Source of the DNA: an uncultured bacterium
GTDB lineage: Bacteria > Actinomycetota > Acidimicrobiia > Spongiisociales > ZC4RG35
Assembly: GCA_963792365.1 (NCBI GenBank)
Contig: CAWBVW010000001.1
Location: forward strand, 912,592-976,591
Reading direction: 5' to 3'
DNA length: 64,000 nt
The notes under the pieces: model-generated
The model's input: the letters and a program-made list of their open reading frames with translations, nothing else
Databases searched by the model: none
Told to the model about the DNA's origin: nothing
Translations under genes and position numbers: made by a program
Part shown: positions 27,329 through 30,972 of the stretch, piece after piece
How positions within the stretch are numbered: the stretch's first letter is position 1
Layout of the letters: each line of letters begins with the position of its first letter

Positions 27329-30010
27329 TCAGAGAGCGTCAACCCCGCTGTCGGGGAACCAGTCCATCACCTCGGGCTGAACCACGGCAACCTGCTGCCA
27401 ACCGCCCCGCTTCCGAATGGCCAGATCGGTACGAACGCGATGACGTTTGCGCCTCGAGATCACGTAGACCTTCTGATCGGTCGCGACCCGTACCATCTTC
27501 CCCTCCACCGAGGCAGGGGTGGTACTCGACGTGAGCCTGTAGTTCGCGAACGAATTCACTGTGCTCACGAGCTCCCACCCGCCCAGCACTTCGACCACCA
27601 CCTCGCTCGGGACCGGCCGGAGGACGTGATCGGCGTCGACCCACCACACGGTCATGGAGTCTTTCTCTCGCAGCATCTTGCCGGCGATCGTGACCTGCTC
27701 TCCACTTTCGGGGTGCTTAGTGATGATATCGGCAGTTGCGCTCCCGCCAATGCCCGACAGGTAGAAGAATCGCTTCATCTCCTCGCGATCCTCCGGGTCG
27801 GGTGGCTGCGTTCTCACGAGGTGACGCTTGCCGCCCCGGACCCACCACGATCGTTGATCCGGGCTCACACCGAAGATCGTCTTTCCTTCGATCGAGGGCG
27901 GCGTCGGGCTCGGAGGGAAAGCGCTGGAACGCCTCTCCCGCACAGGTCCGATGGTCAGGAACGGCCTGGATTCCGCCGAGATCTCATAGCTGAGCCCGCT
28001 GTGGATCCACGCATCGGGAGCGGAGTTCGCGTCCTTTCGCACCAGAAAGCCCTCCCACGCCACGATCGTTGCCGCTGGCGCGATGTCGAAGCTCAGGTCA
28101 GCACCGACATCGTCGTCGTAGTCGAAGCCTGACGGAAAGTCATCGAGAAACCCGTCGATCTCGGTACGGAGGTCGTCATAGACGAGCGGATCCTGGAAGA
28201 AGACAGGGCTCAACAGATGTGTCAGGTCTTCGACTTCGAGCAGAACCGGAACCGGCTCGGACTCCGAGCCCACCGATCCCCGCGAGCTGACGTCGAGCCC
28301 GCTGCCGCTCTTCGACGAGTCGCTCGACTCCTGATCGGTGCTCCCGCTGACGGACGCCGAGCCACCGCCCTCGGGTGTGTGGAAACCGACATCCAGCGAC
28401 TGTTCCTGGCTCGTTCCGTGTGTCATCGACTCCGACACCGACTCCTCGGTTTCGTGTCGCTGCTCCCACGCCTTTGAGCCAAAGCTGATGGCGTGGGCGT
28501 AGTGTGTGCCGAAGCGCCCGAAGAACTCCATGATCCGCTCGGGCCTCGGGTCTAGGGCAAGCGACGCCACGGCCGACCGAAACGCCGGCGCGAGCTGTAC
28601 GGTGGCGAGGTCGACGACGATGTTGTGGGACAGGTTCATGGTCTCGGTGATCGTCGACACGGTCTTCCCGGACGATGCCGAGCTCAACTCGCCGTGCGCC
28701 TTGCTGTTGTTCTTGTACGCCACCTTCGCCCCGAACGCATCCCCTTCGGCGGAGATGCCCAGCGAGGTGGCCCAGGTCTGACGTGACTCCTCGTCCGAAA
28801 ACGCCGAGGTGGTCCTCCCCTTGTTGGTGCCTGAGACGTCACCGGCGAATTGCCATCCGTTCGGCACGACGGTGGCCTTTCCGTTCGTTGCGACGTGGAA
28901 GTCCCGGCTACCCGGAGGAGGCGAACGGAACACCTCCTGTCCAAGTGCGCCACTCGCCTCCTGCAGATTGAAGGGGGCGAGGCGCGAGATGTCGATTCCG
29001 CGGAAAGCCCACGCCAGGTAGTCCACGCGTTCGTTGAGGCTGAACACGTTGTCCCACGTCGGACCATCTTGTGCCGCAGGCGCCGGTCGGGGCGCGGCGG
29101 TGTATACGCTGCCGTCCTCGAACACGACACGAAGCTCCGCTCCGAGGTGGACCTCGACAGACCCGTATGAGTCGACCGGTTCGCCAGAACCCGGGTCGGC
29201 GCGGTGTGCCTCGAAAGCGTGAGACGACACCGTGCCATCGAGGGTCGAGACGACCAACGTGTCGTCCCACTGGTCGATCCGGCGCACGTCCACCCGCCGG
29301 TGATTCGGGTTCGGGCGCTTCGACTCCGGTGTCGGATCTCCCACGTGATCGATCCGGCCCGCGTTTTGATCCGTCTCCGAAGGCGCCTTCGGCACCCTAT
29401 CCTCGTCGAGTCGTGGCGGTCGTCCGGCGTCGACCGTGGGGACGATCCGCAGGCCGCTGGCCGAGGTTATGGCGGTCGGTCCCCGGCCATCGACCATGAA
29501 CCGCACACCGATTCCCCGGATCGCCAAGCGGTCGTAGTGGCCGAACAGCCCGCACGCACGCGGATTGAGCGGTCCGATGTCTTCTCCGCGTCGGTCGAGC
29601 ACCTTGGCGGGGATGAGTTCGTACCAGTCGCCCATTGGGACGCCGCCTGTCAGTTCCAGGCGGCCGTCCTGGGTGGCAATCCCGATCGAGTGGATCAGTC
29701 CGGACTGGTACCCGTAGAGCCCGTTGACCACGTCGTCCTCACCCAACGCCACGACTTCGTCGGGGTCAACCGAATTCGGATCGATCCCACCCACGACCGG
29801 CGAGACGAAGAGCTCGCCTGCGGCAGTCCGCCACGTCACCTGAAATGCCCTGACAACCGTGAGTGTCTGCCCGACTTCGTTACTGGGAATCGTGCCGTGC
29901 CAAACCCTGAACTGACGCACCTGTGAATCCTCGCCCCAGTTCAAGCTGAAGTGACGTCCGGTCGATTGGCCGTGGAGGGGTGATCGGAACACGTACCTCC
30001 CAACGCTCAT
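27329..30010 (-). CDS. jacalin-like lectin + MACPF (perforin-like) domain protein with two C-terminal repeats
   Basis: N-terminal beta-prism/jacalin-like glycine pattern; central FFGRFGTHYAHAISFGS matches the MACPF signature [YF]G[TS]H[FY]x6G[GS]; C-terminal duplicated about 45-aa module (EGK..DQ..GxKRHxVRT). Confidence 0.65.
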   Translation of the reverse strand: MSVGRYVFRSPLHGQSTGRHFSLNWGEDSQVRQFRVWHGTIPSNEVGQTLTVVRAFQVTWRTAAGELFVSPVVGGIDPNSVDPDEVVALGEDDVVNGLYGYQSGLIHSIGIATQDGRLELTGGVPMGDWYELIPAKVLDRRGEDIGPLNPRACGLFGHYDRLAIRGIGVRFMVDGRGPTAITSASGLRIVPTVDAGRPPRLDEDRVPKAPSETDQNAGRIDHVGDPTPESKRPNPNHRRVDVRRIDQWDDTLVVSTLDGTVSSHAFEAHRADPGSGEPVDSYGSVEVHLGAELRVVFEDGSVYTAAPRPAPAAQDGPTWDNVFSLNERVDYLAWAFRGIDISRLAPFNLQEASGALGQEVFRSPPPGSRDFHVATNGKATVVPNGWQFAGDVSGTNKGRTTSAFSDEESRQTWATSLGISAEGDAFGAKVAYKNNSKAHGELSSASSGKTVSTITETMNLSHNIVVDLATVQLAPAFRSAVASLALDPRPERIMEFFGRFGTHYAHAISFGSKAWEQRHETEESVSESMTHGTSQEQSLDVGFHTPEGGGSASVSGSTDQESSDSSKSGSGLDVSSRGSVGSESEPVPVLLEVEDLTHLLSPVFFQDPLVYDDLRTEIDGFLDDFPSGFDYDDDVGADLSFDIAPAATIVAWEGFLVRKDANSAPDAWIHSGLSYEISAESRPFLTIGPVRERRSSAFPPSPTPPSIEGKTIFGVSPDQRSWWVRGGKRHLVRTQPPDPEDREEMKRFFYLSGIGGSATADIITKHPESGEQVTIAGKMLREKDSMTVWWVDADHVLRPVPSEVVVEVLGGWELVSTVNSFANYRLTSSTTPASVEGKMVRVATDQKVYVISRRKRHRVRTDLAIRKRGGWQQVAVVQPEVMDWFPDSGVDAL

Positions 30011-30972
30011 GGCGCTTCCTCCTCCGCAGCCTCCGCCTCCGCCGCCTCGCCCTCCTCGTCCGACAGATCCTCTTCGCTGTCGGGTGGAGGAGGGGGCACA
30101 TCGTCATCGCTGTCCCAGGCGCTGTCGTCGTCGCGCACCATCGTGGCGTACAGGGTCCGTCCAGACTCGCGGAGCGCCGCCACGTCTGCTGTCGACTCAA
30201 TATCGATCCGCTCATAAGCGGGCTCGGATTCATCATCCGGGGCGGCGCCATACACACCGCCGGCTCGGCGCATGAGCTCGTCGACCGACTGGTACTCATC
30301 GGGGTGACCGAGCTCGAGGGTCGATCCCGCAACGACGTCATTGAGGCGTTCGAGGTCGTCCTTCGACAAGGTCCGCCCACCGTCGAGAGTGTTCCTCATC
30401 AGGCGTAGCTCGTCGACGTGACGCTGGTAGAGCTTTGGAATGCGCGCATGTTCGCCGAATCCGATCCCGGCCCCGACCACGGCCCTCAATGATTTCGCGA
30501 GATTCTCCGAGCGCCGATGGCCCTCCGGGGCATCGAAGAGGTCGAAGGTCACCATTCGGGTGTTCCCCGACTTCGAGGTCAGTTTGCGGCGGACCGTGCC
30601 TTCGGCATCGGTCCACCCCCCTGCACATGAGCGAACCACGCCCAGGTACGTGTCGGCTTCCGGGAGGCGTGGCTCAGAGGCCCGCTTCGACGCCTCGTCG
30701 ATCCACGCGTCCAATCGTTTCTCGAACCTCTTGAAGGTGTCGCCGCGCGTCAGTTGCGACTTTGCATGGTCACTGATCCCTGCCAGATCGCTGAACGAGG
30801 TGATGCCGACACCGGCCATTCGCGCCGCCACCTGCGAGCCGATACCTCGTATGTCGGTCAGATCATCGGGCCACCGGGTCTGGTTTGTCGCCTCACCGAT
30901 TGCGATCAGATGATCCAGTACGGCGCGTTGTTCCTTATTCGATCGACCGACACCCACCTTCAACTTCGGCAT
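30007..30972 (-). CDS. helix-hairpin-helix protein with acidic C-terminal tail, translationally coupled to the MACPF gene
   Basis: HhH motif DLTDIRGIGSQVAARMAGVGITSFSDLAG; C-terminal DDDVPPPPPDSEEDLSDEEGEAAEAEAAEEEAP; stop overlaps the downstream start (ATGA). Confidence 0.6.
   Translation of the reverse strand: MPKLKVGVGRSNKEQRAVLDHLIAIGEATNQTRWPDDLTDIRGIGSQVAARMAGVGITSFSDLAGISDHAKSQLTRGDTFKRFEKRLDAWIDEASKRASEPRLPEADTYLGVVRSCAGGWTDAEGTVRRKLTSKSGNTRMVTFDLFDAPEGHRRSENLAKSLRAVVGAGIGFGEHARIPKLYQRHVDELRLMRNTLDGGRTLSKDDLERLNDVVAGSTLELGHPDEYQSVDELMRRAGGVYGAAPDDESEPAYERIDIESTADVAALRESGRTLYATMVRDDDSAWDSDDDVPPPPPDSEEDLSDEEGEAAEAEAAEEEAP

Follow-up and report, generated by a model that had tools for sequence, protein, structure and literature searches.

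To our knowledge, bacterial MACPF proteins are few, and apart from the Bacteroidales BSAPs and a small number of insecticidal ones, none has a known role. BSAP-1 and its relatives are bacteriocin-like toxins in which the MACPF domain is accompanied by accessory N- and C-terminal domains; they bear a lipoprotein signal peptide and are lipoproteins of the cell surface, and their receptor specificity resides in an exchangeable C-terminal domain (PMC12853789). Bacterial MACPF proteins outside Bacteroides have no lipoprotein signal peptide, and Plu-MACPF of Photorhabdus luminescens (PDB 2qp2) joins its MACPF domain to a beta-prism that is thought to contact the membrane (PMC2954219). The combination of Jacalin with MACPF is also listed in a survey of UniProt domains (PMC5536079). 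Fusions of a lectin with a pore former are found, further, in the natterin-like proteins and lamprey immune protein (LIP), which combine jacalin with aerolysin, and in the Vibrio cholerae cytolysin with its beta-prism lectin. The bacterial gasdermins, finally, are leaderless pore formers encoded beside a dedicated regulator gene (PMC12642450; PMC10153256). Here we consider a two-gene unit at positions 27329 to 30972 of a 64-kb stretch of DNA from an uncultured bacterium (the whole stretch is called the window in what follows). It encodes a large protein of 893 residues with a jacalin-like lectin domain, a MACPF domain and three C-terminal repeats, and a partner protein of 321 residues with a helix-hairpin-helix (HhH) domain and an acidic tail.

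The large protein shares with the BSAPs the accessory domains at both ends, and the C-terminal module differs among its relatives too (repeats here, a PLL-type propeller in P0022). The BSAPs have a lipoprotein signal peptide, however, and the large protein has none; the accessory domains are of other kinds (here jacalin and EccB/PlyCB-like repeats), the BSAPs have no HhH/acidic partner, and their hosts are Bacteroidales, whereas the present host is high-GC and probably of Gram-positive type. Plu-MACPF is the kind of lectin-MACPF precedent that an earlier note on this DNA, made from the sequence alone, had pointed to, but its beta-prism is C-terminal rather than N-terminal, it has neither wall-binding repeats nor a coupled partner gene, and 2qp2 did not come up among the PDB sequence or structure matches of the large protein. 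The natterin-like proteins, LIP and the V. cholerae cytolysin differ in that their pore formers are of the aerolysin/haemolysin class, that they are secreted and that they have no partner protein. In the gasdermin systems the partner is a protease which activates by cleavage, while the partner here has no catalytic domain, and the folds are different; gasdermins are defence effectors, while the present pair has neither a PADLOC model nor a known defence phenotype. The kinds of components are thus known, both as fusions of lectins with pore formers and as bacterial MACPF proteins, but their pairing with an HhH/acidic partner is not described. Full-text literature searches gave no Jacalin–MACPF–triple-repeat protein and no obligatory HhH/acidic partner of one, and in the literature found there was no MACPF protein from a high-GC Gram-positive-type lineage and none with a dedicated cytoplasmic partner.

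A translationally coupled gene pair

Both genes are on the minus strand, with the partner gene (30007..30972, an open reading frame (ORF) of 321 codons) upstream of the MACPF-protein gene (27329..30010, 893 codons), and the whole pair is self-contained within 3.6 kb. The earlier note had placed both ORFs and their ATGA overlap exactly here, and had proposed that their translation is coupled. The coupling signal (30007..30025, minus strand) consists of the Shine-Dalgarno sequence GGAGGAGG at 30018-30025, which lies within the last codons of the partner, 8-15 nt 5' of the start of the MACPF-protein gene, followed by the ATGA at 30007-30010, in which the stop codon of the partner gene overlaps the start codon of the MACPF-protein gene. 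The coupling is kept across loci: of the 11 junctions nine are ATGA, that of L001 is TGATG, and in L004 a spacer of 2 nt separates the genes, and nearly all of the 11 have a GAGGAGG-like ribosome-binding site, which is partly encoded by the terminal Glu codons (GAG/GAA) of the partner. The GC content at third codon positions is 0.79 and 0.74 for the two ORFs, which is consistent with genuine genes in a window of 62-67% GC. In a promoter and terminator scan the scores were no better than those of shuffled sequences, and an Rfam scan returned only tRNAs.

An imperfect, GC-rich and partly palindromic direct repeat of 21 nt (17 of 21 bases) brackets the pair, with one copy at the stop codon of the MACPF-protein gene (27311-27331) and the other 33 nt upstream of the partner start (31005-31025), and its score was reached by none of 40 shuffles. 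The repeat was considered as the signature of a mobile element, and this was dropped, as it occurs in the window only, with no comparable flanking repeat in seven other loci.

Conservation and distribution

A word-indexed search of 5.8 billion proteins gave a family of ten members, in which the full-length homologs are 44-52% identical. The pair is very rare: it is carried by two of 185,579 species-representative genomes, both metagenome-assembled genomes of one project, and scans of metagenome and viral contig collections for the family gave little or nothing. When 1.84 billion representatives were searched exhaustively with a profile, 468 relatives were obtained, mostly through the MACPF region. 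The MACPF gene is immediately preceded by a homolog of the partner gene in L001-L004, L006-L008, L010 and L014, that is, at every locus for which upstream sequence exists, which amounts to nine independent loci with unrelated flanks, and profile searches see the partner family only beside MACPF genes.

One of these loci, the independent contig L014, has 97.1% identical DNA and uses the same frame and the same start for both genes as the window. The two copies differ over 718 codons of the MACPF gene by 27 synonymous and 12 nonsynonymous changes, and in the partner gene, the frame of which is intact, by nine synonymous and 11 nonsynonymous ones. From these counts, purifying selection is indicated for both genes, and it appears to be weaker on the partner. 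In the public ENA record of the contig (L013, ERZ25039603 contig_52302) there is a 7-bp indel with two substitutions at ~30255-30267, by which the partner is frameshifted (P0013, 361 aa), and the MACPF start is called later (P0001, 863 aa); the window version is credible because the independent L014 keeps its frame and start. In another locus (L010, 8653-12606) frameshifts split the partner into two ORFs and the MACPF gene into three, which may reflect either decay or long-read assembly errors.

SARP/BTAD regulators and F420-type enzyme families at several loci, together with high GC, suggest that the hosts of the family are Actinomycetota. The pair is a real and very rare unit of uncultured, probably actinobacterial, soil bacteria.

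The MACPF domain

The MACPF signature is (Y/W)-G-(T/S)-H-(F/Y)-x6-G-G. The earlier note had recognised such a signature in the large protein, while allowing that the FGTHY match might be fortuitous, in which case profile searches would miss the domain. They do not: the Pfam MACPF model (PF01823) matches aa 428-568 with 36.4 bits (E 7.8e-9) against a gathering cutoff of 21.5 bits, and it matches ten of the ten family members above this cutoff, so that the MACPF domain, judged by profile, is genuine and the FGTHY match is not fortuitous. The domain as a whole comprises aa 306-640 (28091..29095, minus strand), and distant relatives span positions 2-211 of the 214 in the MACPF profile. The signature region, FFGRFGTHYAHAISFGS (aa 496-512; 28475-28525, minus strand), lies within the Pfam match. 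Its core reads F-G-T-H-Y-AHAISF-G-S (aa 500-512) and deviates from the general pattern by F for Y/W and by G-S for G-G; the family consensus is RFGTHFAYAVTFGSK, with G501, G511 and S512 invariant in the alignment. Two Ser/Thr/Gly-rich segments within the domain (~aa 400-450 and ~aa 520-585) are candidates for the transmembrane hairpins TMH1 and TMH2; they contain short stretches of alternating polarity and are conserved in the family. The only PDB sequence match of the large-protein profile, and hence the best one, is astrotactin-2 (E 0.014), and searches of NCBIfam, PADLOC and PHROGs with the large protein found little or nothing.

Accessory modules of the large protein

The N-terminal domain of the large protein (aa 15-182; 29465..29968, minus strand) has the three-fold beta-prism I fold, as expected for the jacalin-like lectin domain that had been proposed for this position. 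At the level of sequence profiles the Pfam Jacalin model (PF01419), with which the earlier note had suggested that the domain be checked, gives no match at E<=10 in any of the ten family members, while among the relatives it exceeds its cutoff of 22 bits, scoring 32.5 bits in P0027 and 30 bits in P0033. Inspection by eye, which gives a lead only, puts R or L-R, not D, before the final IGV strand (FGHYDRLAIRGIGV; consensus GLRGIGLR).

Between the lectin and MACPF domains (29096..29464, minus strand) there is a Pro-rich segment (aa 183-250; 29261-29464), which is followed by a small beta domain (aa 251-305). The Pro-rich segment is predicted to be disordered, with a predicted local distance difference test (pLDDT) score of ~30 in the AlphaFold2 (AF2) model, and its mean column conservation is 0.74 compared with 0.78 for the MACPF core; a role in docking or processing is conceivable for it. 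On the other side of the MACPF domain, a variable insertion (aa 641-704; 27899..28090, minus strand) is present only in some homologs and has a conservation of 0.32.

The C-terminal part (aa 705-893; 27332..27898, minus strand) consists of tandem repeats of ~60 aa with the consensus EGxLIR..VYxI..GxRHxV....V...GGW..V..V......FP.SG. There are three of them, R1 (aa 705-772; 27695-27898), R2 (aa 773-832; 27515-27694) and R3 (aa 833-891; 27332-27514), all on the minus strand, where the earlier note had counted two. They are modelled by AF2 at pLDDT 70-88, and their fold bears a weak resemblance to the periplasmic domain of EccB1 and to PlyCB and LysIME-EF1, with which phages bind cell walls. The repeat profile matched no PDB sequence. 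Genes of the type VII secretion system (T7SS), of which EccB is a component, are missing among the window ORFs that were scanned. The repeats of EccB1 have earlier been tied to PlyCB, and peptidoglycan anchoring has been suggested for them, a suggestion itself unproven (PMC4769845). Tandem arrays of three to six copies of the same repeat are found in signal-peptide-bearing proteins; the repeat-only relatives P0025 and P0136 have a typical signal peptide at the N-terminus, and that of P0041 is shorter. That the C-terminal repeats bind the cell wall is thereby moderately supported as a prediction.

The large protein itself has no hydrophobic N-terminus: the lectin domain begins at about residue 15, and the maximum hydropathy over 19 residues is 1.39.

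The partner protein

An alignment of eight partner homologs distinguishes four regions, namely an N-terminal helix, a GIG-type HhH, a middle domain, and a linker with tail. The first two (aa 10-100; 30673..30945, minus strand) contain the motifs LDHLIxIGEA and GIGxxxA, in the latter of which G43 and G45 are invariant, and they are helical in the AF2 model with pLDDT ~60-77, where the model was built with four sequences and is of modest quality. For a single partner sequence the Pfam HHH_5 match (E 0.0033, 18.3 bits) stays below the cutoff of 27 bits, and NCBIfam matched the HhH tails of PhaH, L21 and S2. A family profile without the tail, used after a first version of the search had been swamped by low-complexity acidic words, matches HhH/DUF4332-type repeat proteins with E 3e-19, 1e-12 and 2e-12. 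The HhH motif of the earlier note is thus convincing at the level of the family profile only, and stays sub-threshold for the single protein.

The alpha/beta middle domain (aa 109-217; 30322..30648, minus strand) is conserved in all partners, and in profile searches its matches were confined to proteins whose genes neighbour MACPF genes. It remains an orphan, since Foldseek comparison of the partner model with the PDB gave nothing better than E 0.18. The remainder (aa 218-321; 30010..30321, minus strand) is a predicted disordered linker (pLDDT <50) that contains short Tyr motifs and runs into a polyacidic tail (aa 275-321; 30010-30150, minus strand) with a net charge of -19. The length of the linker and the number of Tyr motifs vary among the homologs, and the tail is acidic in every one of them. 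The tail had been described as acidic, proline-rich and similar to that of the single-stranded DNA-binding protein (SSB); its acidic nature is a property of the whole family, while the PPPPP stretch is not conserved among the homologs. An SSB-type tail is acidic and ends in a conserved hydrophobic tip (DDDIPF-like). The partner tails end in EEEAP, SEEEA, VEEDE, EEEER, ESEEI, PEEER, EEDEA and EELEE, and the SSB comparison was given up because no hydrophobic, IPF-type tip is conserved. A T7SS export signal (YxxxD/E), seen by eye in the partner, was likewise rejected, as it is not conserved in the alignment.

Relatives outside the family

All six of the non-repeat relatives that were scanned carry the Pfam MACPF domain. 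Outside the family, the closest relatives are uncharacterised metagenomic LamG–Jacalin–MACPF proteins (for example P0033, P0036 and P0040, with Laminin_G_3 as the LamG domain), which match the family profile with E 1e-37 to 1e-13. They have the same order of Jacalin, linker and MACPF, with both Pfam domains above cutoff, but they differ from the large protein in having a classical N-terminal signal peptide and an extra LamG domain, and in lacking the three C-terminal repeats. In P0022 the Jacalin–MACPF part is kept and the C-terminal repeats are swapped for a PLL-type beta-propeller lectin. The gene upstream of P0022 (in L011) overlaps it and encodes a protein with Tyr motifs and the end EEEAP, and with no HhH; as a homolog of the partner it was dropped, since hhalign gave E 0.18 and only position, overlap, Tyr motifs and EEEAP are common to both. 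P0027 is a leaderless Jacalin–MACPF protein without an upstream partner.

Proposed function and alternative explanations

The reading that we tentatively favour, and which we hold to be quite possible though short of probable, is that the pair encodes a leaderless MACPF toxin, targeted to glycans and the cell wall, together with its dedicated cytoplasmic partner. The jacalin-like lectin and the three EccB/PlyCB-like repeats would be the targeting or anchoring modules for surface glycans and cell-wall polymers, and the MACPF domain would oligomerise and insert two beta-hairpin regions into a membrane. The large protein may derive from, or have common ancestry with, the signal-peptide-bearing LamG–Jacalin–MACPF proteins, in which case the present family would be a lineage without export signal that carries a dedicated cytoplasmic partner instead. 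Through the ATGA coupling, the partner would be made in fixed proportion to the MACPF protein and would bind the toxin inside the producer cell, with the acidic tail and the repeated Tyr motifs as candidate contacts for the basic repeats. Once bound by the partner, the toxin would stay soluble and inactive and/or be passed on to a release route, which may be cell lysis or, where it is present, an adjacent SLATT-like protein with two transmembrane (TM) helices. Domain identities, the conserved operon and its rarity, purifying selection and the lack of signal peptides are results of the sequence analysis, and we infer ligand binding, pore formation, the binding between partner and toxin, the extracellular site of action and the target.

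Extracellular action is favoured because the modules are without exception of extracytoplasmic type, as are the nearest relatives. The reading as a toxin is supported by the C-terminal module, which is exchangeable as in the BSAPs (PMC12853789), by the conservation of pair and coupling in nine independent loci with the partner found only beside MACPF genes, and by the fact that both genes are intact and under indicated purifying selection in the 97%-identical copy. A toxin is further favoured over a defence system because PADLOC-DB v2 has no match at E<=1 for either protein of the pair. That the large protein is leaderless is compatible with a toxin, since leaderless bacterial MACPF proteins are not unprecedented (PMC2954219).

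Several observations weigh against a released toxin. Neither protein has a signal peptide or a TM helix, and a Pfam scan of the 30 larger window ORFs found no secretion-system genes, those of T7SS included. The MACPF core is modelled by AF2 with low confidence, and the canonical jacalin sugar-binding residues (GxxxD-type motif) are at best putative in the lectin domain. The sole domain that can be recognised in the partner appears to be an HhH of DNA-binding type, which is not an obvious feature of a chaperone or immunity protein. TIR genes lie within 2-3 kb in L001 and L005 and match PADLOC TIR models, as does otherwise only a distant gene of the window; in L001 a TIR gene and a gene for a protein with two TM helices lie alongside, and in L005 a TIR-WD40 gene and a trypsin-TPR gene are nearby. 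A gene of ~152 aa for a DUF4231 protein with two TM helices adjoins the pair in L003 (8062-8520, minus strand), L007 (4082-4540, minus strand), L010 (8061-8519, plus strand) and L006 (3389-3853, plus strand), in three different arrangements and once with a 4-bp overlap with the MACPF stop codon. DUF4231 is a member of the SLATT superfamily (PMC9812332), and TIR and SLATT-like neighbours are typical of conflict and defence neighbourhoods.

These neighbours, the lack of export signals and the DNA-binding-type HhH, together with the compact two-gene format, the unrelated flanks and the rare and very patchy distribution, speak for an abortive-infection or programmed-death module, in which both proteins remain cytoplasmic and the MACPF protein perforates the cell's own membrane from inside, as a gasdermin does. 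The HhH partner would then restrain the MACPF protein, possibly on the nucleoid, and sense phage DNA or nucleoid damage, and the ligands of the lectin and repeat modules would be intracellular, such as lipid-linked precursors of the wall. We regard such a module as rather unlikely. PADLOC recognises neither protein; the flanks are ordinary at most loci, with metabolic genes in the window, L002 and L003; lectin, MACPF and EccB/PlyCB-like modules, and the closest relatives, are typically extracytoplasmic; and in the literature searched there is no MACPF effector of prokaryotic defence. The SLATT-like gene, in addition, is found nowhere in the 64-kb window, nor in L001, L002, L004, L008 or L011, and homologs of it occur in two further contigs (L015 and L016) without the pair in the flanking sequence available; it was therefore dropped as an obligatory third component, and these absences and the pair-less contigs mark it as a neighbour that recurs but is facultative, and not as a core component. 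Distinctly unlikely, by our estimate, is the more specific proposal of an intracellular MACPF executioner, held by a nucleoid-binding HhH/polyacidic partner and freed on phage DNA or nucleoid damage; with it, prokaryotic immunity would gain its first MACPF effector. A non-lytic role in the producer's envelope, in which the partner would help assembly and the large protein would serve, for instance, in wall-anchored adhesion, vesicle release or development, would be akin to the case of astrotactin and of some bacterial MACPF proteins without demonstrated lysis, and it would agree with the non-canonical signature, with non-lytic astrotactin-2 as the best PDB sequence match, and with the resemblance of the repeats to the wall-associated EccB1 and PlyCB modules, which could anchor the protein to the producer's own wall. 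For a core function in the envelope the pair is far too rare and its distribution too patchy, however, exchangeable lectin-type C-terminal modules and architectures of lectin with pore former, as in LIP and the V. cholerae cytolysin, are hallmarks of toxins, and the Ser/Thr/Gly-rich TMH-like segments are retained and conserved, so that we consider an envelope role very improbable. That the MACPF call is fortuitous and the ORFs form no functional unit could appeal to the low-confidence AF2 core and to the search of PDB sequences with the large protein as a single sequence, which gave no match; it is already refuted by the Pfam scores above the curated cutoff throughout the family, by the 468 profile relatives, of which those tested carry Pfam MACPF, and by the conserved operon structure with its signs of purifying selection, and we give it virtually no weight.

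If the protein is a released toxin, the pair would reveal how a perforin-like protein that is folded and has no leader is kept from doing harm and afterwards exported, and its lectin and repeat modules would constitute a new targeting logic that can be re-engineered. If it acts from inside the cell, the immune pore formers common to bacteria and animals would extend from gasdermins to perforins, and a MACPF executioner would be a direct bacterial counterpart of killing by perforin and complement. Being small, self-contained and conserved, the pair makes both readings directly testable.

Neighbouring genes and other features of the window

The genes around the pair in the window encode a VanZ-like protein, a methyltransferase, a LuxR-TPR protein, a luciferase-like monooxygenase, a DUF1330 protein and an FAD-oxidoreductase. 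Upstream of the partner, the intergenic region between it and the VanZ-like gene (31139-31643) is ~400 nt longer in the window than in L014, and it contains an unassigned ORF of 135 aa (31031-31438, plus strand) with no Pfam match. The gene for the luciferase-like monooxygenase, 3' of the MACPF gene (25991-26973, plus strand), is split over overlapping frames (25991-26902 and 26707-26973), which suggests a frameshift or other assembly error.

The distant TIR gene of the window (48229-50163, minus strand), 18 kb from the pair, encodes a 644-aa TIR_2 protein with C-terminal Tudor-like domains and a ThsB-like PADLOC match of 79 bits; it adjoins a gene for a LigD primase-polymerase (47217-48206, minus strand). 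A gene at 12330-16199 (plus strand) encodes a protein of 1289 aa, in which a SARP-type winged-helix and BTAD regulator is combined with an nSTAND1 NTPase (384 bits) and a PnrA-like (Bmp) substrate-binding domain, and this is an unusual sensor-regulator architecture. A Fic/DOC-family protein is encoded at 8494-9684 (plus strand), and a Fic gene also adjoins the SLATT-like gene in L015. At 5809-7851 (plus strand) there is a gene for a 680-aa protein with a C-terminal domain of the neocarzinostatin family. A tRNA-like sequence at 10674-10750 (plus strand) has a weak Rfam match (33 bits) and is not called by ARAGORN, and a tRNA-Lys(UUU) gene (1297-1370, plus strand) lies inside the long predicted ORF 1057-2763.

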